Positions 28,225 through 53,330 of a stretch of DNA of 64,000 bases are shown here, in pieces (the stretch's first letter is position 1; each line of letters starts with the position of its first letter). The position numbers and the translations under genes are program-made. The stretch is from positions 419 through 64,418 of the forward strand of contig DATKZA010000014.1 of NCBI GenBank assembly GCA_035528155.1, given 5' to 3'. The notes under the pieces were generated by a model. It saw nothing but the letters and a program-made list of their open reading frames with translations. It was not told the origin of the DNA and searched no databases. The stretch is from Patescibacteria group bacterium (GTDB lineage Bacteria; Acidobacteriota; Aminicenantia; UBA2199).

Positions 28225-30537
28225 ATGCTTAAAAAACTGCCGTTGCTGGTGATGGTATTGTTGGGCACGCAATTTTTGGGTGCCGATATCATCCAAAAAA
28301 TTCAAGTTGAAGGCAACAAAAAGGTCTCACGCGAAACCATTCAATTTTATATGAAGTCACGTGAGGGCGGTGTGTATGATGCGCAAAAACTGAAGGATGA
28401 TTTCAAGGCCCTGTGGGAAACCGGTTTTTTTAATGATATCCGCTTTGAATCGGAAAATGGCGACAGTGGAAAGATCGTGCGTCTGATCCTGGCGGAAAAT
28501 CCGTTGATTTCTTCCGTGACCTACAAAACCGGAAAAAAAGTAAAGGAAAGTGATATTGTTGAAAAACTGCAGAACAGCAACATCATCCTGCAGGCTTTTT
28601 CTTATTACAGTCCGGCCAAGATCCGCAAGGTAAAAAAGATCATCACCGACATGCTGCTGGAAAAGGGCTACAACCAGGCAGCGGTCACCATCGACGAAAA
28701 GAAAGAAAACGAACAGGTCGCTCTGACCATCCAGGTCGATTCGGGTTCCAAAACCAGGATCGCCAGCGTAGTGTTCCCCGGGCTTACCAAGAAATCGGTT
28801 TCCCCCGGTTTTTTGCGTCGGGGTATGAAGAACAACCAGACTCACAATATCTTTTCCCATATCGGCGGCAAGGATGTCTACAACAATGAGAAGATAAACG
28901 AAGACCTGGAGGAGATCCGGCTGCGCTTGCAGCAAAAAGGCTATCTTGAGGCCAAGATCGGGACCCCTGAATTCAGCATGATCAACAAGAAGACCGTTTT
29001 CGGCAAGCTGCAGAAAATGCTCAAGATCAGCATCCCCGTGGATCTCGGCCCGCGCTACCGGGTGGGAAATATTGCCCTGGAAGGCAACAAGATCATTCGC
29101 AGTGATTTTTTAAAAAGCCTGATTACCATTAAAAGCGGTCAGGTCTACAACATCAAGAAGCGCAACAAGTTCATCGAGGAGATACAGAAGTTCTATGGCG
29201 GCATCGGCTATTTTTATGCACAGGTCGTGCCGAGCGAAAATCTGGACCCGGTCAAGCAGACGGCCGATCTGACCATCAATATCCAGGAAAATGATGTTGT
29301 TTACCTTGGCAAGCTCGAATTCACCGGTAACACCTTTACCAAAGACCATGTCATTCGCCGCGAATGGTTCCTGCGCGAAGGCCGGCGCTTGAACATCAAC
29401 TCCCTGGAGGATTCTATCAAGCGCATGAAACAATTGGGCCTGGTCACCGTCGAAAAAATGCCCGACATCAAGGCTGATCCACAGGATCCGCAGAAAATAA
29501 ACATCACCGCTGAAGTCAAGGAACTGAATCGGCAAATGATCAATTTCAATGTCGGCTACAGCGGTTATGAGGGTTGGTTCGTCGCTTTGGGTTATTCGAC
29601 CCAGAATTTTCTGGGCATGGGCGAATCGTTCACCCTGAACCTGCAAAGCGGCACCCGGGCCAAGAACTACCAGTTCGCTTTCGTTGAGCCTTATCTGTTC
29701 AATTTGCCGGCCAATTTCGGCATTGACATCTTCAAAACCTCATACCGCTATCCCTACATGTATACCCGCGAAGGAGAAGGCTTCAACATTTCCACTTCGG
29801 CCCGTTTCTGGAAATATTGGGGCACATCGATTATTTATAGTATGGAAAATATTTCGATCAGCGACATCTATGAAGATTATCAATTTATGAATTCTTATGC
29901 TTCCTATTATTATTCCGAGGGCAAGAGAAGAATTTCCGCATTGGCACCCACCTTATATTACTCCACGGTGGATTCGCCCATATTCCCCAGTTCCGGCAGC
30001 AAATTCCTGGCCACTTACCGCTATTCCGGTGGTTTCCTTGGCGGGGACATCAATCTGCACAAACTGAAATTAGAGCTGGTCAGGTTCCAGCCCATATGGA
30101 AAAGGCACGTGCTGGGTATACATGCCATGTATGAAGGCTTGGCGCCGTTCGGCGGCCGGGCAACTCCTTTTTATGAAAGGTTTTTCTTGGGCGGCGAACG
30201 TTCCATTCGCGGTTTTGACATTTACAATCTCGGCCCCCGCGACAAGAACGGCAATGTTGTTGGCGGCAATAAATCTTTTTTACTCAACTTTGAATACGCC
30301 ATCCCCCTGACCCAGCAATTTTCCTTTGTCTTTTTCTATGATGTCGGCAACTCTTATGAAGTCGGCATGCCCATTAAACTGAAAGATGTCTATTCATCAG
30401 CGGGACTTGAACTGAAAATATTCGTGCCCATGCTCAACGTACCCTTCCGCCTGATCTTCGCCTACAATCCCAGAATCCTGAGAAGCGAGGACCAGCATTT
30501 TGTCTTTAAATTCGCCGTAGGGCCATCATTTTATTAA
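28225..30537 (+). CDS. bamA: Outer membrane protein assembly factor BamA (Omp85, POTRA repeats + beta-barrel)
   Basis: 770 aa with a signal peptide, I..I.V.GN..V POTRA starts, a barrel with FFLGG.RS.RGF, and a C-terminal ...FAVGPSFY. Confidence 0.92.
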   Translation: MLKKLPLLVMVLLGTQFLGADIIQKIQVEGNKKVSRETIQFYMKSREGGVYDAQKLKDDFKALWETGFFNDIRFESENGDSGKIVRLILAENPLISSVTYKTGKKVKESDIVEKLQNSNIILQAFSYYSPAKIRKVKKIITDMLLEKGYNQAAVTIDEKKENEQVALTIQVDSGSKTRIASVVFPGLTKKSVSPGFLRRGMKNNQTHNIFSHIGGKDVYNNEKINEDLEEIRLRLQQKGYLEAKIGTPEFSMINKKTVFGKLQKMLKISIPVDLGPRYRVGNIALEGNKIIRSDFLKSLITIKSGQVYNIKKRNKFIEEIQKFYGGIGYFYAQVVPSENLDPVKQTADLTINIQENDVVYLGKLEFTGNTFTKDHVIRREWFLREGRRLNINSLEDSIKRMKQLGLVTVEKMPDIKADPQDPQKINITAEVKELNRQMINFNVGYSGYEGWFVALGYSTQNFLGMGESFTLNLQSGTRAKNYQFAFVEPYLFNLPANFGIDIFKTSYRYPYMYTREGEGFNISTSARFWKYWGTSIIYSMENISISDIYEDYQFMNSYASYYYSEGKRRISALAPTLYYSTVDSPIFPSSGSKFLATYRYSGGFLGGDINLHKLKLELVRFQPIWKRHVLGIHAMYEGLAPFGGRATPFYERFFLGGERSIRGFDIYNLGPRDKNGNVVGGNKSFLLNFEYAIPLTQQFSFVFFYDVGNSYEVGMPIKLKDVYSSAGLELKIFVPMLNVPFRLIFAYNPRILRSEDQHFVFKFAVGPSFY

Positions 30538-38183: not shown

Positions 38184-39062
38184 ATGCGCGTCGTCGCTCC
38201 TTACGATTTGTTCTTTATTGTTTTATATGCCTTGCTGATTCCCGCAGTCGGTGTGTTGGTTTTTTGCATGACCGGCCGGGCCGTGGTACTGCCCCTCCTG
38301 CTGTTACTGGAGGCCCTTTACCTGATGCTGGCACTCAGAAAACCATGGCAACGCCGCCTGGGGTTGCGAACGTCTTTTCCCGATGAATGGCGTGAATTTT
38401 TGCTTTCCCGCTCGGCCTATTTTTACGGTCTGGACGAGGACGGCAGAATGCGATTTGAGCGCGATGTCCGCCTGTTCCTCGTCGACGTTCGCATCACCGG
38501 CATCGGGGGACGGCCCCTTTCCTGGCCGACCCGCTTGCTCATCGCCGCCGGGGCTGCGGCCATGCTGCACGGCCGGCCCGATTGGGAGCCGCCGCTCGCC
38601 GATGGCGTTACGGTATATCCCGGCATGAGTTTTGACCGCAATTATCAGGTAAAAAAGGGAAACATTGCCGGACAAGCCCCTGCGGGGGGACCGATGCTGC
38701 TCACCGAGGGAAGTCTGATGCAGGGATTTGCCGATGCCGAAGACGGCTTCAATGTCCTGATTCACGAACTGGCCCACTTTTTTGACCGGGAAGCGAGAAA
38801 GAGCGGGCTGAAATTGCGGCTGCAGTCGGGGACGGTTGCCTGGGCCGAGACCATGGCCCGGGAATGGCAGCGGCACGACCACGGGGCCTCGATCCTGCCC
38901 GCTTACGCCGCCCAGAATGAGGCCGAATTCTTTGCCGTGGCCAGTGAAATGTTCTTTGAAAATCCCCGGCCGCTCCATGACGCCCATCCCGGACTTTTTG
39001 AAATACTGCGGGAGTTCTACCAGCAGGACCCGCGGCAGGTTCTGGCCAGCCGGCCCGTATAA
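38184..39062 (+). CDS. M90-family (MtfA-like) zinc metallopeptidase with N-terminal TM segments
   Basis: HELAHFFD (HExxH) and EFFAVASEMFFE are typical of MtfA/M90. Confidence 0.7.
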   Translation: MRVVAPYDLFFIVLYALLIPAVGVLVFCMTGRAVVLPLLLLLEALYLMLALRKPWQRRLGLRTSFPDEWREFLLSRSAYFYGLDEDGRMRFERDVRLFLVDVRITGIGGRPLSWPTRLLIAAGAAAMLHGRPDWEPPLADGVTVYPGMSFDRNYQVKKGNIAGQAPAGGPMLLTEGSLMQGFADAEDGFNVLIHELAHFFDREARKSGLKLRLQSGTVAWAETMAREWQRHDHGASILPAYAAQNEAEFFAVASEMFFENPRPLHDAHPGLFEILREFYQQDPRQVLASRPV

Positions 39063-39146
39063 ATCCAGCCGCAGCATAAAGCATTTGAAAGTTTATTATA
39101 AATAAACAATTTGTCTGAATTTACGCAAACAATTCACATCCGTTAA

Positions 39147-39207
39147 TTGCAATTTCAAAAAAATATCCTTAAAATAATATTATAGGGGAAACTTATTTTC
39201 ATTTGAG
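39147..39207 (+). promoter_or_regulatory. Island element copy A (promoter-like boxes + degenerate palindrome)
   Basis: TTGCAA (39147-39152), a 17-nt spacer, TAAAAT (39170-39175), then GGGGAAACTTATTTTC (39185-39200). Lies 32 nt upstream of the OmpA-like ATG. Confidence 0.5.
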
Positions 39208-39238
39208 TTAACTTGATAGAAAAAGGAGGGAGAATATA

Positions 39239-40078
39239 ATGAAAAAGAATGTTTTTATTATTTATTGCTTTTGTTTATTCGTACTTTCGGTAACACCCGT
39301 TCTGTCCCTTGCCCAGGAAGATGTGCCGGGCAGCAAAGATCATCCAATTCTTACGCGAATGCCCAGCTTCTACATCTCAGACTATCAATATAAGGAATTT
39401 GACCAGGCCGATTTCAAAAATGATAAGGGGGAGGATATTAAGATTGAAGGCCACAAATATCACATTGAATATGAAATCAAGAAAGACAGGAGGGCTCCGA
39501 GTGAACTTCAAATTTTAAGAAACTATGAAAATGCTATAAAAAAAATAGGAGGTTCGATTCTTTATGAAGCTCCAGGAGAAACATGGCTCAAGGTGGAAAC
39601 GGGCGGAAAAATAACGTGGATTTATATATATGCGCATTCTGAGGGAGAATCATATGAAGTGGCGATTGTAGAGAAAAAGGCAATGGCGCAGGAAGTCGTT
39701 GCCGATGCAAAAAGCCTGGCAAGGGATATCCGCTCGACCGGGCATGTATCTGTTTATGGTATCTACTTTGACTTTAATGAAGCCACGGTTAAGCCAGAGT
39801 CCGAGTCGACGCTGAAGGAGATTGCGAAACTTCTAAAAAATGAACCTGAGCTAAATCTGTACGTGGTCGGGCACACTGATGGTGTGGGGAAAACTGCTTA
39901 CAATATGAAACTTTCCCTGGCACGGGCTGAAGCTGTTGTAAGAGTCCTGGTAACAAAGTATGAGGTGGCTCAGAACAGGCTTGATTCTTATGGAGTGGGC
40001 CCCTTGAGCCCTGTAGCTTCCAATGAGACCGAGGAAGGCCGAGCAAAAAACAGACGGGTTGAGTTGGTTAAAGAATAG
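39239..40078 (+). CDS. OmpA-family protein: signal peptide + N-terminal domain (DUF4892-like) + OmpA C-terminal peptidoglycan-binding domain
   Basis: 279 aa. GSKDHPILTRMPSFYISDY resembles the DUF4892 start. The C-terminus FDFNEATVKPES...VGHTDGVG...YNMKLSLARAEAV...GRAKNRRVELV is a canonical OmpA_C domain. Confidence 0.85.
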   Translation: MKKNVFIIYCFCLFVLSVTPVLSLAQEDVPGSKDHPILTRMPSFYISDYQYKEFDQADFKNDKGEDIKIEGHKYHIEYEIKKDRRAPSELQILRNYENAIKKIGGSILYEAPGETWLKVETGGKITWIYIYAHSEGESYEVAIVEKKAMAQEVVADAKSLARDIRSTGHVSVYGIYFDFNEATVKPESESTLKEIAKLLKNEPELNLYVVGHTDGVGKTAYNMKLSLARAEAVVRVLVTKYEVAQNRLDSYGVGPLSPVASNETEEGRAKNRRVELVKE

Positions 40079-40087
40079 TCGATATGA

Positions 40088-42073
40088 ATGGTGGTTATTA
40101 TGAATAAAATAAAGTTTTTTTTCCCAGCTCTGCTGTTTTCTTTATTGTTCAGCATATCTTTTATAGCATTTGCAACTTCCGGTGATGGATGTGATGGCTG
40201 TAAGAGAGATGCGGTACTTAAGAAAGCCATTGGTCTGGACAAGGACTGGGCTGCGGAATACAACCGGTTAAAAAATTGGGTTTCAAAGAACTTCGATGAG
40301 CCCGAAGGAGAGCCAAACCAGTTAGAGCCCTATATCCGCTGGATGGGTATCAAGGCCAAGGACAGAGACGAAGTCAAAGCCCTCCTGGAAGAAGTGAACC
40401 GCCTGAGTTATCTCAATCCCAAGGACAAAGCTCTGGAACAATGGACACAAAAGTTCTTTTATCTCCAGGAACTGGCACAGGGCTCGGGAATATCGACGGT
40501 AAACGGCGCCTGTATGAAGTTCATGCGCTTGAGAAGCCCGCTATTCCCAAAGATTGCAAACTGGAAGGAGCTTATTTGGAGGCTGCAGAGGTATGGAAGA
40601 GTTATTTATACAAAAGCCCAGGAAACGGCTTTCGTTAGTCCCATGATCAAAGGATATGCAAAATGTTTGATCAATTTTTCCATTCGGGATGTGGAAGGTG
40701 ATCCGTATGGTTTTGGTGTTTATCGGGATCGTGAAGGACTTTTCGGCTATATGGACGAAGAGGGGTTTCTTAACATCCCAGATCGCGATTTCACAACGGA
40801 CTGTGAAAGACGAGGAGAATTCACGCTGACATCAAAAGGGGAGCCTGCCCAGCCCACGGATATTGGCCTGGACTGGATAGAAAAGGTACGAGAAGAAGCC
40901 AAATGGTGGCAGCTTGCCGGGGAGTATTCTGATGCCACGGATTTGATGAATGAGTTTTTCGAGGATTCCATGTGTAAAAGCCCACCCAACACGCCCGGAC
41001 AAGGACACAAGAATTTTTATGGCAAACAGGCCCTGAAACACAGCCTGCAAAAATCCATAGATTATAATGACGGCTTTTACGGCATTGTATACGGCAAAGT
41101 GGAAATAGAGACCAGTGAAGGCAGGACCCCGGCCGGATATGCCACCGTCAAAGTCACTGACCCCCATGACAAGAAGACATGGGAGACGGAAGCCGACAGT
41201 GAAGGAAATTACGAGATCAAGGATGTCATTCTCCACAAAGACTGCTCTCCTTTTACGATCACAGCCGCATCCGGCATAGACAAGGTCATCGATCAATATG
41301 ACGGTCCTCTGGAAAAGCCTGACCGATCTTACCGTTATAAAAAGAATTTGGTAATCCGCAAATCACCTGTATCTGCTAGGATTACTTTAACATCGGAAAC
41401 GACAACCAAAGCAGATGGTACAATAAATTTCCCGGGAGAGGGAGAGAGGAAGACAATTGTTAAGGACAATAGTTATAAAATCATAAGTGTAACAATATTA
41501 GCTAATTTTGAAGAAAAACCGGAGGTTGATTTCGACGATCAACTAAAAGTCATAGGTTACAATTATAAAATAACTAACTATAAGGTAATTTCAGAGACCT
41601 ACAGTGACGAAGGCACGTTTTATGAAGCTCAGTACGATGCTGCTGGCCGTCTCCGGGTAGAATCAACGAGCAAAACTACACGGAGCGGGACATCAACAAA
41701 AATAGAGCTTCAATCAATTGAAAGTAATACAATGTCGCTGGATGTGGATAAAACGACGGGCAAGATAAACTATGTAGATTTTCCTTTTTTTGATGTAATG
41801 TTCATAGTTAATAGCAATTCCCAGACAACTGGCAGAAAAGAGTCATCAATAGGCAACTACGACCCTATTAACATTAGCGACACAAAATCATATGATAATG
41901 AGTTTTCGGTTCAATCAGGTTCAGGTTCACGGCTAAAAGTGCTTAATGGAGACGGCGTGCATTTTATTTCGGGAAAGTATGTTGATGAACATACAACGGT
42001 AGACAACCAAGATACAAGAACAAGAACAGAGAAAGTTACATATCAGTGGGAGGTTAGAATACAAAAAAAATGA
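40088..42073 (+). CDS. Secreted 661-aa protein of unknown function with an internal carboxypeptidase-regulatory-like (CarboxypepD_reg) beta-sandwich
   Basis: Signal peptide (alternative start at 40100, MNKIKFFFPALLF...AFA). YGKVEIETSEGRTPAGYATVKVTDPHDKKTWETEADSEGNYEIKDV (~41080-41270) is a textbook CarboxypepD_reg pattern. The rest is unrecognised. Confidence 0.7.
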   Translation: MVVIMNKIKFFFPALLFSLLFSISFIAFATSGDGCDGCKRDAVLKKAIGLDKDWAAEYNRLKNWVSKNFDEPEGEPNQLEPYIRWMGIKAKDRDEVKALLEEVNRLSYLNPKDKALEQWTQKFFYLQELAQGSGISTVNGACMKFMRLRSPLFPKIANWKELIWRLQRYGRVIYTKAQETAFVSPMIKGYAKCLINFSIRDVEGDPYGFGVYRDREGLFGYMDEEGFLNIPDRDFTTDCERRGEFTLTSKGEPAQPTDIGLDWIEKVREEAKWWQLAGEYSDATDLMNEFFEDSMCKSPPNTPGQGHKNFYGKQALKHSLQKSIDYNDGFYGIVYGKVEIETSEGRTPAGYATVKVTDPHDKKTWETEADSEGNYEIKDVILHKDCSPFTITAASGIDKVIDQYDGPLEKPDRSYRYKKNLVIRKSPVSARITLTSETTTKADGTINFPGEGERKTIVKDNSYKIISVTILANFEEKPEVDFDDQLKVIGYNYKITNYKVISETYSDEGTFYEAQYDAAGRLRVESTSKTTRSGTSTKIELQSIESNTMSLDVDKTTGKINYVDFPFFDVMFIVNSNSQTTGRKESSIGNYDPINISDTKSYDNEFSVQSGSGSRLKVLNGDGVHFISGKYVDEHTTVDNQDTRTRTEKVTYQWEVRIQKK

Positions 42074-42244
42074 AACTTTCGCAGGCAAGGGCCAAGGCAG
42101 TTATAAAAGCCCTGGTAACAAAGCATGGAGTGGCTCAGAACCGTCTTGATCCCTATGGAGTGGGCCCCTTTGAGCCCTGTGGCCTCCAACGAGACCGATG
42201 AAGGGCGAGCAAAAAACAGACGGGTGGAGTTGGTTAAACAGTAA
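42070..42244 (+). pseudogene. Remnant of a second OmpA-like C-terminal domain (paralogous to 39906-40078), frameshifted
   Basis: Nucleotide-level similarity runs from ATGAAACTTTC... through ...GCAAAAAACAGACGGGT(T/G)GAGTTGGTTAAA. An extra T in GGCCCCTTTGAG shifts the frame. Only the last ~57 codons of an OmpA domain are present. Confidence 0.65.
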
Positions 42245-42257
42245 ACAGGAGGCAATC

Positions 42258-42848
42258 ATGTTCAAAAAAGCTGTATTAGCGGGATTCATAATCCTGACGT
42301 TTTCCAATTATACAGGAATTGTATATGGAAAGGGGGAAACAACAGGCTATTTGCAGATTATTTATAAAAGCTGTGAATGTGGGATGACTAAGCCCCATGT
42401 ATTCAGCTGTTATGCCCCTTTTTCTATAAAAGGCAATAAAATAATCGGAGATTTTGAAATTCCAGAAGATGCCAAAATGTACCTTCCCGTTGTCCCGATT
42501 GACCCTGCTGATCGTGATTCTTCCGATTTTGAAAAACAAATTATCGTGTATTCGTACAAATGCCCTCCAGTAGATGAGGACTGTCCCCCACCGGATGTTA
42601 ATGGCCAACTAAACGTTCATAAGGTAAGTGGCGAGGTCGTTAAAATTAAAGGAAAAAAAATGCTGCATTTTGTGATAAGACTTTCTATTCCATATTGCAC
42701 TGTGAATGTATGTGGTCACGTGGCTGATCGTTCAATGGAACCCTGGTCTGATGAGTTTCTGGCCCCATTCCAAGACGGTTATCGTACAGAGCGAGGTGAA
42801 AATGTAATGTTTATTTACGTAGTTAATCTTCAGGCGGACCCAAAATGA
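42258..42848 (+). CDS. Secreted Cys-rich hypothetical protein (196 aa)
   Basis: AGGAGG lies 5 nt upstream of the ATG at 42258. Signal peptide MFKKAVLAGFIILTFSNYTGIVYG. 9 Cys in total. No family recognised. Confidence 0.6.
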   Translation: MFKKAVLAGFIILTFSNYTGIVYGKGETTGYLQIIYKSCECGMTKPHVFSCYAPFSIKGNKIIGDFEIPEDAKMYLPVVPIDPADRDSSDFEKQIIVYSYKCPPVDEDCPPPDVNGQLNVHKVSGEVVKIKGKKMLHFVIRLSIPYCTVNVCGHVADRSMEPWSDEFLAPFQDGYRTERGENVMFIYVVNLQADPK

Positions 42849-42871
42849 TACACTGCTTCGCAAAAAGCACA

Positions 42872-42934
42872 GTGCAATTTCAATAAAAATTTTCTTAAAA
42901 TCCCAGCATGAGACAAATTGATTTTCCTATATAT
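42872..42934 (+). promoter_or_regulatory. Island element copy B
   Basis: GTGCAA (42872-42877), an 18-nt spacer, TAAAAT (42896-42901), then ATGAGACAAATTGATTTTCCTATAT. It opens a 43-codon ORF (42908-43039) that ends 21 nt before the DUF502 gene. Confidence 0.45.
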
Positions 42935-43060
42935 GAAGCAGACCTGGTATTTCATGGTAATGATACCGGTATGACTGGGGCTTTTCCCCGAAAAATACCG
43001 AAGCAAACGGTTGATTCCGTCTTCGATATTGTTCGGTAAAAAATTTTAGGGGGAACCAAA

Positions 43061-43660
43061 ATGAAAAAGATCAAAAATTTTATTAAAACGACTCTTTTTG
43101 GAGGATTACTTGTTATCCTTCCCATCGTTCTTACTTTTTTTCTTATAAGGTGGATATTTAATATTGTTTCGGGAATGATAGAACCCTTGACCATGTTGAT
43201 AATGAAACAACCGCATATGCGAAAGATTATTGCGGATATCATCTCCGTGGTTCTGATAATCGTGGTCTGCTTTGTGATCGGCTTGATCGTAAAGACAAAA
43301 ATAGGTAGATATTTATTTGCTGAGATCGATAATCATATCCTAAAAATTGCTCCGGGTTATTCATTATTCAAGGAAACATTGAAGCAACTTGTGGGTCAGG
43401 AAAAGAAACCTTTCTCTTCAGTGGTTCTGGCAAGAATATTCGGCAGCGATACACTTATGACCGGTTTTGTTACCGATGATCACCCGGACGGCAGGTATAC
43501 GGTCTATTTCCCCTCGGCGCTTAACCCCACAACCGGGCTTTTGTGTCATTTGAAAAAAGAGGATGTCCGGATAATCGATGTTTCCGTAGAGACGGCAATG
43601 AGGTCGATCATCAGCTGCGGGGTGGGATCAGCCAAGCTGTTTGAAAAGTTGAAACAATAA
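43061..43660 (+). CDS. DUF502-family membrane protein
   Basis: 199 aa. The N-terminal LFGGLLVILPIVLTFFLIRWIF and a second TM helix resemble the DUF502 topology and signature. Confidence 0.7.
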   Translation: MKKIKNFIKTTLFGGLLVILPIVLTFFLIRWIFNIVSGMIEPLTMLIMKQPHMRKIIADIISVVLIIVVCFVIGLIVKTKIGRYLFAEIDNHILKIAPGYSLFKETLKQLVGQEKKPFSSVVLARIFGSDTLMTGFVTDDHPDGRYTVYFPSALNPTTGLLCHLKKEDVRIIDVSVETAMRSIISCGVGSAKLFEKLKQ

Positions 43661-43781
43661 ATTTTGACAAATTTGGCTTAAAGCAAATTTGTACAACCGA
43701 ATCCAGAATCGTTATTGCATAACTGTACCAGGACGCCTGCCGGCGGTTCAAACAAACAAGTCAAGCACGGTTAAAACGATC

Positions 43782-43845
43782 TTGCAATTTCAATACAATT
43801 TCCTTACACTATCATCATGGGGAAAATTGAGTTTCCTATAAGTTC
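43782..43845 (+). promoter_or_regulatory. Island element copy C
   Basis: TTGCAA (43782-43787), a 17-nt spacer, TACACT (43805-43810), then ATCATCATGGGGAAAATTGAGTTTCCTATAAGT. A 13-codon mini-ORF runs 43817-43858. Confidence 0.5.
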
Positions 43846-43882
43846 AAATCATTCCTGACGACTGAAGAAAGGGGGAGAAATT

Positions 43883-45838
43883 ATGGTTCGTATAAAGTTT
43901 TTATATTGCTTACGGGCAGCGATATTGCTGATGCTTTTGACAAACGTTGTGTCCCATGCAGTTGCGGACTCACAAAAGACCCTGCCGGCGCAGGTCAAGT
44001 TAAACATAAGCTGGGACATCGACGGGGAATACGAACATAGGAAGGGATCATTTTTAATGCAAATAGCAGGGACTATGGAACTCAATCCTTTGAGCGTGCA
44101 AACCCCTGGCGGCAAAGCAATAACGCCGGTATCTCTCCAATACTCCGCAGAAGGTTTGAGTGGTTCATTCAACTATCAGGAGACGGTTACCGAGAAAGCA
44201 AAACCTAAGGAATGTGCACCGGTGCAGAACTACAAGGGCTCGGGGGCGATTAACACGGTTGGAGGCGGCCTGCGAGTGCAGCGAATGAAACACCTGGCTT
44301 CGGCCTATCTGGACAAACTCACCCCCATGCAAAAGCAGTTCCTTGCTCAGATTCCCGGGCAGGAATTGCTTCTTGATTTTTACCAGTTTGGCTGTGTACT
44401 CCCCGGACGATTTGTTGTATCGGGTATGTGCCAGGGCAGAGATTGTAAATACGACAAATGCGAAAAAAAAATAAGCCTTGGCAGGGTTTCTCTGGGTTTT
44501 AAAATACCGTCCTCCGGAAAGATGGAAGGCCATCGCAATTGGAAGGCCAGCCCTAAAACATTCGAATCTATCTTTATTGTCAGCTTAGCCGACCTGCCCG
44601 ATAAAATGGGACTCCCCGCTTACAAACCGGCGCAATCCACTGGAGGGGATGTGACCTATAACGTCACCTGGGCTTTTGGTAAGGCCGTTTTAAAACCCCT
44701 GGACGGGGAGGTACGCACGGTATCTTTCAATTACACCGACGGCAGCCAGGACCAGGAACATAGTCTGAAGCTCTTGCACCACAACCCGTCCCGGCCCGTC
44801 GAGCCGCCGGAATGGATCCGCGGCGACGTAGTGCCCGAACCGGCGGCTTTTGTACGCGATTACCCTTTTCTCGTGAAGGCCGTCTTTGATTGCCGTAGAC
44901 CGGTCAAGGCTGCCGAGATTCGTGCCGATGAAACAGGCGATTCCGGTAGTTGCTTCGGCGGGCAGCTAACCCAGGTAGGCGATTTAACTATTTCCGGCAA
45001 ACAAATCTCCGGAGAATTCGTCATCAAAACACCCCAGAAGGTAATCGGAACCCACCGAGTACGCTGGCAATGGGAGGGCGATATCGAGTTTGAGGACGAG
45101 CCGGGGAAAATAAAAGCGAATCTTGGAGAAAGTGAGCATACAATTTACATTGTTGGCGACGTACCCACAAGAAATACTCGCGCCTACAAACACGCTGTGG
45201 ACCTCGGCTGCGAATGGGCGGAGGGAACTGATGGAGGTGCTGATACTTTTGGGCAAATCTGGTCAAAATTTTGGAACATCAGGGCTCCGAACGGCGGCAT
45301 CCTGTCTTATGCACATAAGCCGGAATGTCCGGGTGACACTAACGCATTACTCACAAATAACGAGGGCAAATGTGGCGCCTGGGCTGACTTCTTCAAAGAT
45401 ACTGTCGGCATTCATGGAATTCAGATTTTAAAAATCGGCATTTATCCAAAGAATGCAGAGATGACTATCCCAGGAGAGTCATGCTTCGATACCATAGTGG
45501 TCAAAGAGGGACCAGCCCAGGGCAACCCTGAGCCGGCCCGTGTTTTTTTTGAGCACGTACTAAATGAATTAAATGGGATTTATTACGATCCCTCCTACCA
45601 TTATGAGTTTTCCGGAAGTTTAAATGGCTATGAAAACGAAATGTTCCAAGGCTACTGTCGCAGTCTTGAGGTGAAAGACCTTATCAACTCTGGCAAAACC
45701 AGGTGCGCTCAAATAAACCATTCCAACAAGCAGCAAAGAGAAGCGCTCATCGCTGAGTGTCTTATTAAGGCAGAGGATGATGGAACCGCGTGTGTACCCA
45801 ACCGGGATGAATGCGAAGTTTACGAAATAATTGAATAA
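43883..45838 (+). CDS. Secreted 651-aa protein with a C-terminal transglutaminase-like (papain-fold Cys-His-Asp) domain
   Basis: Signal peptide ...VVSHAVA. GKCGAWADFFKDTVGIHGI (Cys codon 45371-45373), EHVLNEL (His 45554-45556) and IYYDPSY (Asp 45587-45589) match the G-x-C-x-x-[FW]-A ... H ... D-P-[ST] layout of transglutaminase-core enzymes. Confidence 0.65.
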   Translation: MVRIKFLYCLRAAILLMLLTNVVSHAVADSQKTLPAQVKLNISWDIDGEYEHRKGSFLMQIAGTMELNPLSVQTPGGKAITPVSLQYSAEGLSGSFNYQETVTEKAKPKECAPVQNYKGSGAINTVGGGLRVQRMKHLASAYLDKLTPMQKQFLAQIPGQELLLDFYQFGCVLPGRFVVSGMCQGRDCKYDKCEKKISLGRVSLGFKIPSSGKMEGHRNWKASPKTFESIFIVSLADLPDKMGLPAYKPAQSTGGDVTYNVTWAFGKAVLKPLDGEVRTVSFNYTDGSQDQEHSLKLLHHNPSRPVEPPEWIRGDVVPEPAAFVRDYPFLVKAVFDCRRPVKAAEIRADETGDSGSCFGGQLTQVGDLTISGKQISGEFVIKTPQKVIGTHRVRWQWEGDIEFEDEPGKIKANLGESEHTIYIVGDVPTRNTRAYKHAVDLGCEWAEGTDGGADTFGQIWSKFWNIRAPNGGILSYAHKPECPGDTNALLTNNEGKCGAWADFFKDTVGIHGIQILKIGIYPKNAEMTIPGESCFDTIVVKEGPAQGNPEPARVFFEHVLNELNGIYYDPSYHYEFSGSLNGYENEMFQGYCRSLEVKDLINSGKTRCAQINHSNKQQREALIAECLIKAEDDGTACVPNRDECEVYEIIE

Positions 45839-45880
45839 CAAGACGTTCGATCGATTTGGGCTTACAATTCGCATCGTTTA

Positions 45881-45945
45881 TTGCAATTTCACTAAAATTC
45901 CCTTAAAATTCCATCATAGGGAAAATTAATTTTCCTATAAGTCGA
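45881..45945 (+). promoter_or_regulatory. Island element copy D (best-preserved; perfect 16-bp palindrome)
   Basis: TTGCAA (45881-45886), a 17-nt spacer, TAAAAT (45904-45909), then the palindrome GGAAAATTAATTTTCC at 45920-45935. Confidence 0.55.
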
Positions 45946-46010
45946 GCTGGTTGCCGGCGGATTGGCGATTGCGAATGAAAGTCGGCAACAAATACTTAGG
46001 AGGCCCATCT

Positions 46011-46457
46011 ATGTCAAGATCCATGATCGTTCTGGTGATGTTGAGCGGATGTTTGCTGATCTTCGGAAATACGGTCCAGGCGGCTGATGAAAGTGTCGGA
46101 CAAGCCATTATTGGACATTGGTCAATCGCCCCCAACGAAGCCAGGACAAAAGGAACACTGATTTTTAATAACAATGGGACGTATGAGCGGATCGAAACTG
46201 ATAAGGACAATAGCAGCTATTCGGTCAAAGGCCCGTATAAGATAAATGAAAAGCAGCACCCATGCGCCATCGACCTGTGCGTAGATAAATGTGGCGGGGC
46301 CGGTTCGGAGTGGACCACCTTGTTCGGGATATTGAGATTTCTGGATAACGGCCAACTGGAAATCCAGTTCTCATCCAGCAGTGAAAGACCTGAGGCATTT
46401 CCCCAAAAACCAGACCTCGGCACTTATCTGTTGACCCGAAAAGCGGTTAAAGAATAG
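46011..46457 (+). CDS. Small secreted lipocalin-like protein (resembles the TIGR03067 family)
   Basis: AGGAGG lies 7 nt upstream of the ATG at 46011. Signal peptide ...NTVQA. GHWSI..., KQHPCAIDL, GILRFLDNGQLEIQFSSSSERPEAF resembles the P.AIDL ... GIY.LdGD.L.l......RP..F pattern of that family. Confidence 0.55.
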   Translation: MSRSMIVLVMLSGCLLIFGNTVQAADESVGQAIIGHWSIAPNEARTKGTLIFNNNGTYERIETDKDNSSYSVKGPYKINEKQHPCAIDLCVDKCGGAGSEWTTLFGILRFLDNGQLEIQFSSSSERPEAFPQKPDLGTYLLTRKAVKE

Positions 46458-46494
46458 GCACATGTTTCCCTTTGATCAAAGTGCGGGAGGAAAA

Positions 46495-46532
46495 TCGAAT
46501 CATAATGGGTAAAATTAATTTTCTTAAAAGTT
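46495..46532 (+). repeat. Island element copy E (3' half only), containing the start codon of the next gene
   Basis: ATCATAATGGGTAAAATTAATTTTCTTAAAAGT aligns with copies C and D. No TTGCAA/-10 part is present upstream. Confidence 0.5.
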
Positions 46533-47335
46533 TATTTCCAGCTCTTGTTTTTATTGTTCTTTCCTTATTGTCGACAGGTTTGTATTTTGGCGAGGAAAAA
46601 ACCGGACAAGTAGATGGGGATCTTACTCAATTTGCCGGAACCTGGTCAGGGCATGGGGCAGGTGAGGAGGTGAGGTTTAGGGACAAGAATGGGTTATTGA
46701 TACTCACCGTCAAACACAAAACCGAATTTGTCTTCCACGTTGAAGAAAACGGGAAGATCGCGGGTGAGGGAACCATCGAATATGGTCTTGAAAGAAATAC
46801 TTCCGGTCTTGATGACCTTGTTGCCGGGGTGCATTCACTCATGGGACTGGCCCAGGTCCCTGGAATAGGTGTAGAGGGCCCTCTCGGTGATGCGGCAAAA
46901 AAAGTTGGGGAAGAGTTGACAGATGTAAAGGGAGTAACAAAGATCCAATATGATGCCCCCCACCTTAAACACGGGCCAGAAATTAGACATTTCAAATTTA
47001 CAGGAACAATAAAAAATGGAACCTTTAAAAATAATGAAGGGCAAGAGGTCGAAGCATTTTTAATTGAACTGGATGAAGTAAAGAATTTTACACTGATGGG
47101 GGGCAATCCCGACAACACTCTTATTGCAGAATATGAGGTCAACAAGGTTAAAACTGATGCCAAGTTCCCCTGCTGGTCCCCTTTCATGGAAGGGGCCGGG
47201 ATCGTCCGCAAAGGCCCGGGAAATATTCATATCGCTGAATTCCAGCAGAAGGGAGAACATCGCAAGGGCAAGCGTGTCTGGCAGGAATACGGATATGTCT
47301 GGCTCGCCCGGCAGATCGCCCCGGAAAAAAAGTAG
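46505..47335 (+). CDS. Hypothetical exported/anchored protein (276 aa)
   Basis: ATG at 46505 (MGKINFLKSLFPALVFIVLSLLSTGLYFG). No family recognised. Confidence 0.6.
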   Translation: MGKINFLKSLFPALVFIVLSLLSTGLYFGEEKTGQVDGDLTQFAGTWSGHGAGEEVRFRDKNGLLILTVKHKTEFVFHVEENGKIAGEGTIEYGLERNTSGLDDLVAGVHSLMGLAQVPGIGVEGPLGDAAKKVGEELTDVKGVTKIQYDAPHLKHGPEIRHFKFTGTIKNGTFKNNEGQEVEAFLIELDEVKNFTLMGGNPDNTLIAEYEVNKVKTDAKFPCWSPFMEGAGIVRKGPGNIHIAEFQQKGEHRKGKRVWQEYGYVWLARQIAPEKK

Positions 47336-50788: not shown

Positions 50789-51613
50789 ATGAAAAAAACA
50801 GTTTCATGGCTGGGAATCATGGGTTTGATCGTGGCGGCCGGGCTGCTGGTCATTTCCGGCGCGGCGCTTTTGTCCGCCGCTGAAGGCTGGTGCTGCCTGG
50901 ATGGCGTGGTGTTCGCGGCCACGCCCGAGCAGTGCAAGGAGAAGGGGGGCATGTACTTCGCTACCCAGGCCGAAGCGGAGAATTATTGCAAGCAGCCGCC
51001 GGCGACGGGCTGGTGCTGCAAGGACGGGGTGGTGTTCGCGGCCACGCCCGAGCAGTGCAAGAGGAAGGGCGGCGTGTATTTCGCGACCGAGGCCGAAGCG
51101 AGAAAGTACTGCGATCAGCCGCCGGTGACGGGCTGGTGCTGCAAGGACGGTGTGGTGTTCGCGGCCACGCCCGAGCAGTGCAAGAGGAAGGGCGGGGCAT
51201 GGTTCGCCACCAAGCCGGCAGCGGAGAAATATTGCCGGGAAGGGAATAAACTTCCCGATCTGATTGTTCGGGACATTGTCCTCAACCGCAAATGTCAGGT
51301 GGTGGTCATCGTTGCCAACGTCGGCCCGGGAGCGGTTCCGGATGAAGTATGGACCGTCCACAAGCCGACCAGCAGCAGTGTCTACCTCTATATCAACGGT
51401 CACAAATGGGGCGGCGGGACGATCTGGGGCTTCGATCCGGGCAAGCACCTGCAGAGCCCGGGCGGCACGGCGAAATATGTCAGCAAATTGATCGTTGGCG
51501 CCGCGGCCGAGATCACCGCCCTCATCGACCACACCGGTGAGGTCAATGAAACCAATGAAGGCAACAATAAGTTGATTAAAAAGTTGGAATGCAAAGTTGG
51601 GGGGACCAAGTAG
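50789..51613 (+). CDS. Exported protein with three tandem 41-aa four-cysteine repeats and a C-terminal CARDB-like domain
   Basis: 274 aa with a signal/anchor. 3x GWCC.DGVVFAATPEQCK.KGG.(Y/W)FAT..(E/A)A..YC. Then LPDLIVRDIVLN...V.V.VANVGPG..., typical of CARDB. Confidence 0.7.
   Translation: MKKTVSWLGIMGLIVAAGLLVISGAALLSAAEGWCCLDGVVFAATPEQCKEKGGMYFATQAEAENYCKQPPATGWCCKDGVVFAATPEQCKRKGGVYFATEAEARKYCDQPPVTGWCCKDGVVFAATPEQCKRKGGAWFATKPAAEKYCREGNKLPDLIVRDIVLNRKCQVVVIVANVGPGAVPDEVWTVHKPTSSSVYLYINGHKWGGGTIWGFDPGKHLQSPGGTAKYVSKLIVGAAAEITALIDHTGEVNETNEGNNKLIKKLECKVGGTK
50885..51240 (+). repeat. Three in-frame tandem copies of a 123-bp GC-rich coding repeat
   Basis: GGCTGGTGCTGC recurs at 50885, 51008 and 51131, an exact 123-nt spacing. 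Copies 2 and 3 are nearly identical over their first ~70 nt. Confidence 0.85.
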
Positions 51614-51703: not shown

Positions 51704-52216
51704 CTAATGGTTATGGCGCATGACCTGGCGGCTTATGAAGCGGTCGACTAAAGCAGCGCTGAGCAGACCCAGTCCGCCGAGAATGAACGGCTTGGCGTTG
51801 CCGCCCACCCAGAAAAAGAGCCGTTTTATTTGATCACCCAGGGGAAGAAACGCCGTTTTGAGTGTGTCGAAGACCTGCAGGGTACCATTGGCCAGGGGCC
51901 GCATGTTCACAAAAATGAGCAATCCGGCCAGGATGACGGCGGCAGCGCCGATCGCCAGGGCGATCTTGGCTGCCGGTCGCTCCCAAAAAACAGGCCGGGA
52001 AGCGGGGATTCTATCCAGTACGGAGTCGGCAAAAGTCGGCGGCAGAGCGAAGCCGGGATCGGCTGCCAAACCGGCATACAGTTGCCGGAAGCTGTCCAGG
52101 CGTTTTTGACAGCTGGCGCAGGTTCCCAGGTGCATGGGTAGGATCGATCCGGTCTGAAGCATGCGGGTGTCCAGGATCTCCTGGATCTGTTCGTTGGTCA
52201 AATGATCGTTGTTCAT
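51704..52216 (-). CDS. Anti-sigma factor (zf-HC2 type) with one TM helix
   Basis: H-x3-C-x2-C motif HLGTCASCQ near the N-terminus. TM AAKIALAIGAAAVILAGLLIFV. ATGA overlap with the sigma gene. Confidence 0.75.
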   Translation of the reverse strand: MNNDHLTNEQIQEILDTRMLQTGSILPMHLGTCASCQKRLDSFRQLYAGLAADPGFALPPTFADSVLDRIPASRPVFWERPAAKIALAIGAAAVILAGLLIFVNMRPLANGTLQVFDTLKTAFLPLGDQIKRLFFWVGGNAKPFILGGLGLLSAALVDRFISRQVMRHNH

Positions 52217-52788
52217 GATTCCTCCCGAGCAGCGGGCAAAAGCCGTTCGCGCAATTTTTGCCGGGCGCGGAACAGGTGGCTCTTGACCGTTCCGGCCGGC
52301 ATTGTCAGCGTCCGGCCGATCTCCTCGTAATTCATTTCTGAAAAGTGAAAAAGCGTCAGGATGAGCCGGTAATGAGCGGGCAGTCGCTCGATCTCCTGCA
52401 TCAGGTTGCGGTTGCTGTCAGCCTGCTCGCTAATGTGTTCCGGGTTGTGGCCGTTTCCGGCGACATTTTCCAGCGTTTGCCCATTGGCACTTACATCAGC
52501 GAACAGGGGCATGCGTTTCCTGCGCAGGTGGTTGATGCAGGTATTGCTGGCGATGCGGCCGATCCAGCCTGGAATTTTGGCGGCCCCCTGGAATTCCCCG
52601 ATATTTTGGAAGATTTTCAGGAAAATTTCCTGGCATAATTCCTCGCGGTCGGCGTTATTGTAGACCATGCGGAATACGATAGCCGCTACCAGGCGCTGGT
52701 ATTTTTCAATGAAAACGCGGAAGGCCTGGCGGTCTCCGGCCTGAACGCGGCTGACCAGAAGAGTGACTTCATCGATGGGTTCGTTCAT
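52213..52788 (-). CDS. ECF-type RNA polymerase sigma factor (sigma-70 group IV)
   Basis: Region 2: FRVFIEKYQRLVAAIVFRMV...DREELCQEIFLKIF. Region 4: LPAHYRLILTLFHFSEMNYEEIGRTLTMPAGTVKSHLFRARQKLR. Start uncertain; an alternative ATG at 52833 would add 15 codons. Confidence 0.85.
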   Translation of the reverse strand: MNEPIDEVTLLVSRVQAGDRQAFRVFIEKYQRLVAAIVFRMVYNNADREELCQEIFLKIFQNIGEFQGAAKIPGWIGRIASNTCINHLRRKRMPLFADVSANGQTLENVAGNGHNPEHISEQADSNRNLMQEIERLPAHYRLILTLFHFSEMNYEEIGRTLTMPAGTVKSHLFRARQKLRERLLPAAREES

Positions 52789-52973
52789 CTGCGCGTCGGG
52801 CGTCTGGTATTTGATTTGTCTTGCCTGCTTCATTGGTATTATAGTAAACATCCCAAAAAGATGGAAGTTGCAAAAAATTGAATTATTTTTTCTGAAACAT
52901 TCTCCGCCTAGGCCTGTTAGTTCTCTTGAGAGGCGGTTGAGGCTGCCTTCGAAAATCGCCATGGAGGTGAAAA

Positions 52974-53330
52974 ATGAGCGAGAATTTTGCTGCTGTTTTT
53001 ATTTTGGCTGTGATCGGTTATTTCATCCTGGAATTGGTCAAGGTTGTCTCGGAGAGCCGTTTGCGCCACAAACTGATCGAAAAAGGCATGGTGGATGAAA
53101 AGGTCAAGCTTTTGTTCCAGCCGCAGATGCTGAACCAGTCGGCTTCGGCCCTGAAATGGGGCCTGGTGCTGATCGCCGTGGGAATGGCTTTCCTGTTCAC
53201 TTACGGGATCTACAGCTGGGTGCCTTCCGGAATCCGTGAAGAGATGACCGCCGGGGCGGTTTTCTTCATGGCCGGCCTGGGCATGATCGTTTATTACGGC
53301 ATTGCCCGCAGCCAGGAAAAGAAGAATTAG
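52974..53330 (+). CDS. Small 3-TM membrane protein, divergent from the ECF sigma gene
   Basis: GGAGGTG RBS. 118 aa with three hydrophobic helices. No confident family assignment. Confidence 0.55.
   Translation: MSENFAAVFILAVIGYFILELVKVVSESRLRHKLIEKGMVDEKVKLLFQPQMLNQSASALKWGLVLIAVGMAFLFTYGIYSWVPSGIREEMTAGAVFFMAGLGMIVYYGIARSQEKKN

Follow-up and report, generated by a model that had tools for sequence, protein, structure and literature searches.

A repeated element upstream of unrelated genes in Aminicenantes (Acidobacteriota): a probable promoter-plus-leader module with a bias towards exported proteins

Putative mobile promoters (PMPs; Matus-Garcia, Nijveen and van Passel 2012) are similar non-coding sequences found upstream of unrelated genes, in a single genome as well as in its relatives; neither known mobile elements nor Rfam families match them, and the way in which they spread is unknown (PMC3575422). 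They were defined as sequences lying between −150 and −50 from the start codon with at least 80% identity over at least 50 nt, and promoter reuse as a general phenomenon has been described with them (PMC3575422). Promoters are also carried by short dispersed repeats such as the Neisseria Correia elements, ERIC and REPIN (PMC3575422). Leaderless genes, in turn, have a published signature, TANNNT, with the first T about 12 nt before the start codon (PMC3160421). Here we describe an element of about 75–100 nt that shares features with each of these and that is repeated in a 64,000-nt stretch of contig DATKZA010000014.1 (assembly GCA_035528155.1), from the Aminicenantes lineage of the Acidobacteriota; this whole stretch is called the window below.

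The Aminicenantes are abundant, uncultured sediment and subsurface bacteria, for which we know of no genetics and no mapped promoters. Two well-studied regulatory signals from other bacteria are relevant to the element. The 5' stem-loop of Escherichia coli ompA protects its mRNA from 5'-end-dependent decay, and the radiation/desiccation response motif (RDRM) of Deinococcus, a palindromic 17-bp site bound by DdrO, is the operator of a regulon.

The window contains four full copies of the element (A–D) and one partial copy (E), all in one orientation and all confined to an AT-rich island:

Copy A, 39120–39212, + strand: upstream block CAAACAATTCACATCCGTTAA; −35 box TTGCAA at 39147–39152; 17-nt spacer; −10 box TAAAAT at 39170–39175; predicted +1 at 39182 (ATA); 3' half divergent; precedes an OmpA-family gene.
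Copy B, 42866–42938, + strand: −35 box GTGCAA at 42872–42877; 18-nt spacer; −10 box TAAAAT at 42896–42901; ATG at 42908 opening a 43-codon open reading frame (ORF); hairpin not formed; start of a DUF502 gene 153 nt past the ATG.
Copy C, 43776–43847, + strand: −35 box TTGCAA at 43782–43787; −10 box TACACT at 43805–43810; ATG at 43817 (13-codon ORF); predicted hairpin of −5.7 kcal/mol; precedes the gene of a 651-aa secreted protein.
Copy D, 45857–45946, + strand: upstream block ACAATTCGCATCGTTTA; −35 box TTGCAA at 45881–45886; −10 box TAAAAT at 45904–45909; ATA at 45916; perfect palindrome GGAAAATTAATTTTCC at 45920–45935; predicted hairpin of −7.2 kcal/mol; precedes a 148-aa gene.
Partial copy E, 46495–46532, + strand: of the element, just the 3' part (ATCAT-AAT-GGGTAAAATTAATTTTCTTAAAAGT) can be clearly made out, and it forms the start codon and first nine codons of a 276-aa gene; a Shine-Dalgarno sequence (GGGAGGAAAA) precedes it in the place of the promoter.

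An earlier note on this DNA had pointed out the five co-oriented repeats, and a repeat finder recovers all of them at the same positions (families D2–D4 and D9, + strand). The exact 10-mer TGCAATTTCA occurs four times in the 64 kb, at 39148, 42873, 43783 and 45882, that is, in the full copies only. An nhmmer profile built from A–D finds only these four full copies, with E-values from 1e-15 to 1e-19 (the profile includes the copies themselves), and places copy E at 46500–46532 with an E-value of 0.06. Copy E is 84% identical to copy D over 31 nt. The GC content of the island is 41–50%, compared to 55–62% in the genome. It is flanked by an M90 peptidase gene on one side and by further genes of unknown exported proteins on the other, and its proteins recur unchanged on several metagenome contigs.

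The element is not limited to the window. Scanning a single genome for each species with a pattern that fits A–D yielded seven loci in four GTDB species genomes, three of them metagenome-assembled genomes (MAGs) of Aminicenantes/Acidobacteria and one a MAG labelled Sedimentisphaerales. A metagenome scan, with the promoter half specified and the 3' half left free, yielded 37 contigs, and nhmmer applied to the same contigs revealed further, more divergent copies; after removal of duplicates there are about 41 distinct copies. Since the same element occurs in other genomes and in metagenome contigs, the repeats of the window are not due to chance. The Sedimentisphaerales-labelled match (L010, JBELAA010000057.1, and L029), nominally from the Planctomycetota, is either a mis-binned contig or a transfer outside the Acidobacteriota.

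The family consensus is (aaATAATTCACAaCCGTCT)ATTGCAATTTCAAT-AaAatTTCCTTAAAAT-CCCATC-ATGGGgAAAATTGATTTTCCTATCAGT, or, in a short form without the upstream part, ATTGCAATTTCAAT-AAAAnTTCCTTAAAAT-CCCATC-ATGGGgAAAATTGATTTTCCTATCAGT. The conserved segment described in the earlier note is thus real, but its extent was drawn too short. In many relatives the conserved block begins about 20–25 nt before the −35 box (AATTCACA.CCGTCTA), and it ends at ...TATCAGT, about +27. The 3' edge is sharp, with an abrupt fall of the information content after CAGT and a flat profile by +31, whereas at the 5' edge the information content declines gradually. The GC content of the host loci ranges from 31 to 61%, and hence the element is maintained across compositionally different genomes.

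These edges bear on the possibility that the element is a Correia-like miniature inverted-repeat transposable element (MITE) with an incidental outward promoter. The element is indeed dispersed, multi-copy and about 100 nt long; on some contigs (L035, L037, L022) its copies are 93–99% identical, and some copies elsewhere carry a palindromic insert flanked by TA..TA. However, no terminal inverted repeats common to both ends are present in the five copies examined, the 5' edge is diffuse, and inspection of the edges by eye shows no direct repeats flanking the copies (no dedicated search for target-site duplications was run). Moreover, all copies are directed towards a gene, no copy inside a gene was found, and there is no exact match to the promoter-half pattern among the IMG/VR viral contigs. 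No transposase associated with the element was seen among the genes annotated. The MITE alternative, which the earlier note had named as a check, is therefore not supported, given the lack of terminal inverted repeats in the copies examined and the single orientation relative to genes, and we consider it highly improbable. As for a link to integrons, no integrase is found among the island genes scanned (no search was aimed at one). The attC sites of integron cassette arrays are imperfect palindromes downstream of promoterless cassettes; the elements lie upstream of genes and have promoter-like hexamers of their own.

The two boxes had been described as an almost ideal sigma70-type pair with a spacing of 17–18 nt. 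The geometry is of this type, TTGCAA-17-TAAAAT in A and D, with TACACT in C and, after correction, a spacer of 18 nt in B. The hexamers themselves fall short of that description, matching the consensus at nine of twelve positions. The −35/−10 geometry is kept in the approximately 41 distinct copies, including those where the search pattern did not force it, such as the secondary copies TTGCAG-17-TACAAT, ATGCAA-17-TAAAAT, TTGCCA-17-TAAAAT and TTGCAA-17-TACACT, and also TAAAAC. In the unforced copies T−12 and A−11 are preserved, and T−7 mostly so. The distance between the −10 box and the ATG is fixed at 5–6 nt, the first T of the −10 box being 12 nt before the conserved ATG.

Every copy examined is oriented towards its downstream gene; in L008 two back-to-back copies are found, one for each of two divergent genes. 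In most loci a Shine-Dalgarno-led start follows 44–160 nt past the conserved ATG. In three loci, the conserved ATG itself opens a long ORF with no Shine-Dalgarno sequence:

L024, 4811–5641: orthologue of the 276-aa protein.
L040, 7006–8022: PD40-repeat protein.
L013, 425–1474: C39-like peptidase.

A more distant homologue of the 276-aa protein is preceded by an unrelated promoter, TTGCAT-17-TACAAT-TTCATC-ATG, with the same geometry of the −10 box, 6 nt and ATG. From the leaderless-type ORFs we infer a housekeeping-type promoter with the transcription start at the A of C-ATG, and this promoter reading is well supported by the comparison of sequences.

Several other signals were considered by eye and rejected. 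A T7-like phage promoter (CATAGGGA) does not fit, as positions −1/+1 vary and the conserved block is far longer. The sigma32 −10 box (CCCCATNT) has the wrong spacing. So do the FNR/CRP boxes (TGAT-N6-ATCA), whose motif is also lost in the TATAAGT variants. The AAC/CGT motifs of an extracytoplasmic function (ECF) promoter are absent. At about 51950–53097 on the − strand, some 5 kb downstream of the island (the position was converted from L001 coordinates), there is an ECF-type sigma factor gene (Sigma70_r2/r4) next to a small gene; no link between it and the element was found.

The first genes behind the copies in the window are the following:

39239–40078, + strand, after copy A: OmpA-family protein with a signal peptide.
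43061–43660, + strand, after copy B: DUF502 membrane protein.
43883–45838, + strand, after copy C: 651-aa protein that has a signal peptide and matches nothing in Pfam; absent in L024 and L054.
46011–46457, + strand, after copy D: 148-aa protein with a signal peptide; absent in L024.
46505–47335, + strand, the gene of copy E: 276-aa exported protein, with the 3' half of the element supplying its first codons; homologues of this family are found in Candidatus Aminicenantes and Acidobacteriota MAGs.

The same tendency is seen throughout the family. An N-terminal hydrophobic segment (signal peptide or membrane anchor) is present in 32/36 first genes, compared to 70/177 other ORFs of the same loci (odds ratio 12, Fisher p = 3e-8). 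At that, the Pfam content of the first genes is mixed: OmpA family, BON, Lgt, DUF502, tricorn-like, S9/S15, M15 and C39 peptidases, beta-lactamase-fold, PAD, amidohydrolase, GH130, GmrSD and sensor proteins, while many first genes have no match. The targets are a functionally mixed set enriched for exported proteins, not one pathway. Of the three readings offered in the earlier note, a shared promoter/operator is the best supported, although in its promoter part only. The idea that the element-linked genes are AT-rich or foreign was rejected, as 17/35 are lower in GC than their surroundings.

Secreted-protein genes adjoining the element are variable. The second island gene (40241–42156 in the window, 1792–3102 in L024) has a product of 661 aa in the window and one of 450 aa in L024, the middle parts of the two being unrelated, and the large secreted protein behind the element in L007/L042 shares only its ends with that in L012. 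Just past the 661-aa gene, at 42067–42243, the 3' end of the OmpA-family gene is present a second time, 83–88% identical to 39902–40077; this duplicate is apparently a frame-disrupted remnant (43-codon ORF at 42070–42201) and is also present in L024.

Copy E is indeed the real N-terminus of the 276-aa protein, as the earlier note stated. However, homologues of this protein begin with MKKK, MNRR and other ordinary, varied signal-peptide starts, and the MGKINF start is found only in relatives that are at least 95% identical. Hence the 276-aa gene took its first codons from the element. The earlier suggestion that the repeats are the duplication footprint of one gene's 5' end thus has the direction reversed: the gene acquired its start from the element. 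A related possibility is that all five copies arose within the island by repeated duplication of the 5' region of one gene. The presence of five co-oriented copies within 7.4 kb, the fact that E is a genuine N-terminus and the nearby duplicated OmpA 3' end, demonstrating that local duplication occurs, are all in line with it. But the window copies are only 58–75% identical, and copies from other genomes resemble them at least as closely as they resemble one another; they are therefore old and not a recent local series. The element precedes unrelated genes in other genomes, and the MGKINF start is confined to close relatives. Local serial duplication is therefore not supported, and we assign it hardly any probability. 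In the family as a whole, the likeness of copies within and between contigs is 0.73 and 0.71, respectively, an excess within contigs being observed in some contigs only.

Upstream of copy E, the segment GTTTCCCTTTGATC (46470–46504) shows a weak resemblance to the spacer and −10 box of the element; it is followed by a 21-nt stretch with the Shine-Dalgarno sequence, treated by MAFFT as an insertion. Copy E may be a decayed full copy turned into an operon-internal ribosome-binding site.

In three closely related strains, with 91–96% identity in the shared parts, the islands differ. The following segments of the window are missing:

43683–46501, missing in L024: a C×E recombinant of the element runs directly into the ATG of the 276-aa gene (leaderless arrangement).
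43843–45881, missing in L054: one C×D hybrid element stands before the 148-aa gene.
39045–43035, missing in L054: copies A and B and the genes between are lost, and the M90 peptidase gene abuts the DUF502 gene.

The crossover of the L024 chimera lies in CATCATGGG. As the C×E and C×D recombinants lack the intervening genes, recombination between the direct repeats removes or adds the genes between them. It also explains why in L024 a full promoter is situated directly on the start codon of the 276-aa gene.

We consider it likely that each copy is a clade-specific, reusable promoter-plus-leader module of the Aminicenantes (Acidobacteriota), and would place it as an undescribed member of the PMP or shared promoter-leader kind. 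The housekeeping sigma70-type RNA polymerase would bind TTGCAA and TAAAAT across the 17-nt spacer, possibly helped in part of the copies by the A/T-rich upstream block containing AATTCACA, and transcription would begin at the A of the conserved C-ATG, 7 nt past the −10 box. The first 27 or so nucleotides of the predicted transcript (ATGGGgAAAATTGATTTTCCTATCAGT) are kept as a nucleotide sequence. For a few genes, the 5'-terminal AUG would be used directly as the start codon of a leaderless mRNA, whereas in most cases a short leader, untranslated or incidentally translated, would precede a Shine-Dalgarno-led gene. The module would have been copied before many unrelated genes, preferentially those of exported and membrane proteins; as these genes share the module, they would have one common expression signal and may be co-regulated. 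Finally, directly repeated copies serve as recombination points at which the genes between are deleted or inserted, making the island differ among strains.

Several observations weigh against this explanation. Both collection scans required TGCAATTTCA and CTTA (CTTAAAAT in the metagenome scan), which inflates the conservation of the respective columns. In three more distant relatives, 60 kb of sequence contained no copy, and the element is thus absent before their homologues of the 276-aa gene; its distribution may be narrow. The 39045/43035 junction in L054 lies outside the elements. The test for exported proteins used a crude hydrophobicity rule and self-made ORF calls. Hexamer pairs matching at 9/12 positions are no more frequent in this AT-rich region than in shuffled sequences (15 observed, 13.7 expected), and thus the significance comes from conservation and not from the quality of the hexamers. 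The promoter and the start site are deduced from sequence logic. Last, the conserved positions include the spacer, the discriminator and some 27 nt further downstream, more than a plain promoter requires. A further factor, a DNA- or RNA-binding protein, is therefore probably involved.

The reported perfect palindrome of copy D was found as described: GGAAAATTAATTTTCC at 45920–45935 matches on both strands over 16 bp. Its position had been given as +10 to +30 and is +5 to +20 when measured from the predicted start. A second feature of interest is the 3'-edge motif TCCTATCAGT (or TATAAGT), which five copies carry as two or three tandem repeats, with spacings of 10, 10, 12, 14 and 15 nt:

L039: tandem 3'-edge motif.
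L022, about 8050–8148, − strand: tandem 3'-edge motif.
L035, about 4640–4728, − strand: tandem 3'-edge motif.
L023: tandem 3'-edge motif.
L036, about 7740–7765: tandem 3'-edge motif.

Beyond the element copies and these tandem duplicates, the degenerate 9-mer T[CT]CTAT[CA]AG occurs only about eight times in approximately 400 kb. The third feature is an upstream direct repeat T(C/T)CACA-N5-TTCACA, conserved in a subset of copies and absent from many.

One way to account for the conservation beyond the hexamers is an operator bound by a dedicated transcription factor, which would co-regulate envelope and secreted proteins; this would add to the promoter and not replace it. Candidate sites are the palindrome at about +12 (GGAAAATTGATTTTCC), a related segment of the spacer, TTTCC, and the T(C/T)CACA-N5-TTCACA repeat, alone or in combination. 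The palindrome overlaps the predicted start, a classic position for a repressor, and is perfect in copy D, where the spacer segment AAAATTYCC is complementary to +3..+13. The upstream block kept in a subset of copies, the common cellular destination of the target gene products and the five tandem duplications of TCCTATCAGT would fit as well. On the other hand, no candidate regulator gene is consistently adjacent in the loci whose neighbours were inspected, the palindrome is degraded in A and B, and changes at two sites (e.g. in L025) are not symmetric. The spacings of the duplicated motif have no fixed helical phase, although a protein binding to DNA should demand one. An OmpR/PhoB-type site is an idea that the upstream repeat brings to mind, but again the repeat is absent from many copies. 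We regard an operator as a real possibility, albeit one that falls short of being probable.

The alternative is that the same segment acts as RNA. The consensus from +1 to +23 can be folded into a 9-bp stem with a 5-nt loop, with energies of −5.7 to −7.2 kcal/mol in consensus-like copies, and this hairpin begins exactly at the predicted +1. Such an AU-rich 5' hairpin might protect the mRNA from 5'-end-dependent decay, or might bind an RNA-binding protein acting on the stability or translation of mRNAs of exported proteins. In 35 aligned sequences, standard pairs occupy 89% of pair cells, compared to 52–61% with the partners slid. One-sided changes that still allow pairing are seen in 29 cells, all of them to G-U or A-U on this strand, and there are two G-C to A-U double changes, with only one pair showing double changes. 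A 1-nt deletion in L050 shortens the loop and retains the stem, and the variable spacing of TCCTATCAGT would suit a single-stranded target. However, folding does not produce the hairpin in A and B of the window, and the basic hairpin has modest z-scores (−1.2 to −2.1). Covariation in the same 35 sequences is no better than in column shuffles, and RNAalifold predicts no consensus structure; hence we do not claim an RNA motif. A hand tally from the alignment gave about 18 wobble-compatible and 10 wobble-incompatible transitions, which is not significant. In Rfam 15, neither the window nor 12 further loci have a match at the gathering threshold, and at E ≤5 nothing overlaps any copy.

In one subfamily the loop of the hairpin contains a palindromic insert of about 45 nt (TAGCATCACT...AGTGATGCTA), flanked by TA..TA:

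L014, 2269–2396, − strand: element with the loop insert.
L017, 2560–2695, − strand: element with the loop insert.
L027, 1065–1245: element with the loop insert.
L031, 1442–1598: element with the loop insert.
L045, 244–424: element with the loop insert.

The insert would extend the helix: of the four members folded, L017, L027 and L031 reach −22 to −26.5 kcal/mol, and L014 has −14.9 kcal/mol, no better than in shuffles. One compensatory pair is seen between L027 and L031. The insert could be either an expansion of the helix or a small palindromic mobile element; no free-standing palindrome of this type (GCATCACT...AGTGATGC) is found outside the element in approximately 400 kb of the loci. All in all, a role of the segment as a cis-acting RNA leader is possible, but we think it doubtful. 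The hairpin, the loop insert and the tandem motifs suggest that something binds the start-proximal segment, as DNA or as RNA, and either the operator or the RNA leader may be the source of the extra conservation.

The conserved segment also looks like the beginning of a coding region, and in the earlier note it was thought to be conserved as a peptide. The ORFs exist as described, 43 codons at 42908–43039 in copy B and 13 codons in copy C, and ATA does replace ATG in copies A and D. A regulatory leader peptide would require that the leaderless mini-ORF (MGKIDFPIS...) be translated and that its translation control the downstream gene; mycobacteria are known to have small upstream ORFs that are leaderless. 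Of the 41 copies, 35 have an ATG, at precisely the position of a leaderless start codon. However, the remaining six copies, including A and D, have ATA. The mini-ORFs vary from 7 to 59 codons and have unrelated tails, and the 1-nt deletion in L050 shifts the frame but preserves the string of nucleotides. Third codon positions show no excess of substitutions; e.g., CCT is replaced by TCT, CAT, ACT or CTT, never by CCN. The constraint is on nucleotides and not on the peptide. A regulatory leader peptide is thus not supported either, and in our opinion it is very unlikely.

Some observations in the window lie apart from the element. The window also encodes BamA and ADOP-type duplicated permeases (ADOP, the NCBIfam name of the family, stands for acidobacterial duplicated orphan permease); the BamA gene (28225–30537) lies within a second low-GC stretch (44–48%) of the otherwise 55–62% GC window. 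At 50885–51253 there are three tandem copies of a 123-nt unit, the second and third having 85% and 72% identity to the first, presumably 41-residue repeats within a coding region.

If the promoter-plus-leader module is what we believe it to be, a single unit of about 75–100 nt before dozens of unrelated genes provides a concrete expression signal for the Aminicenantes. It is a candidate natural strong promoter for heterologous work, and it could predict a co-expressed part of the secretome from sequence. It would also be an unusually clear case of promoter reuse, as the reused piece holds the start site and can donate the start codon, and recombination between its copies visibly remodels a genomic island among close strains. 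Should a specific DNA- or RNA-binding factor be the cause of the extra conservation, this would be a new regulatory system. A more speculative scheme, which we think improbable, is that the module is a clade-specific expression and recombination cassette of the Aminicenantes exported proteome. Its transcribed 5' segment (the hairpin and the repeatable UCCUAUCAGU) would be recognised by a dedicated factor coupling stability, translation or membrane delivery to the mRNAs of secreted proteins, and the direct repeats would allow surface-protein genes to be gained, lost and swapped by strains, as in a promoter-first analogue of cassette systems.

The statement of the earlier note that no described element has this layout holds for Rfam and the literature searched, and the module resembles each of the known systems only in part. 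As with the RDRM, a palindrome is situated near the start site in many genes of mixed function within a single clade, but the conserved sequence is about 75–100 nt and not a 17-bp site, and the palindrome is imperfect in most copies. As with the stem-loop of the ompA 5' untranslated region, the hairpin would open the transcript, leaving no 5' nucleotide unpaired, and would be found on mRNAs of envelope proteins; unlike it, the hairpin is weak (−6 to −7 kcal/mol), shows no covariation and is absent in A and B. Similar to the Correia elements, ERIC and REPIN, the module is a short dispersed repeat able to supply promoters to its neighbours, but, unlike the promoter-bearing MITEs, it has no terminal inverted repeats in the copies examined and is strictly oriented towards genes.

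The module shares with the promoters of leaderless genes (PMC3160421) the position of the first T of TAAAAT/TACACT, 12 nt before the ATG, and the long ORFs of L024, L040 and L013. In contrast to such promoters, most copies have a stop after 7–59 codons, followed by a Shine-Dalgarno-led gene, and hence the module would mostly yield a leadered mRNA with a leaderless-looking 5' end.

The PMPs are the closest in kind, being similar sequences before unrelated genes with no Rfam match. On single relative contigs the copies are 97% (L035), 99% (L037) and 93% (L022) identical over about 72 nt, above the 80% over 50 nt by which PMPs are defined; in the window, the best pair, A and D, has 78% identity over 68 nt, and the other pairs 58–75%. 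Unlike in the PMPs, the conserved block of the module includes the −10 box, the predicted start site and about 27 transcribed nucleotides. The module is further set apart by its preference for genes of exported proteins and by recombination between its copies.

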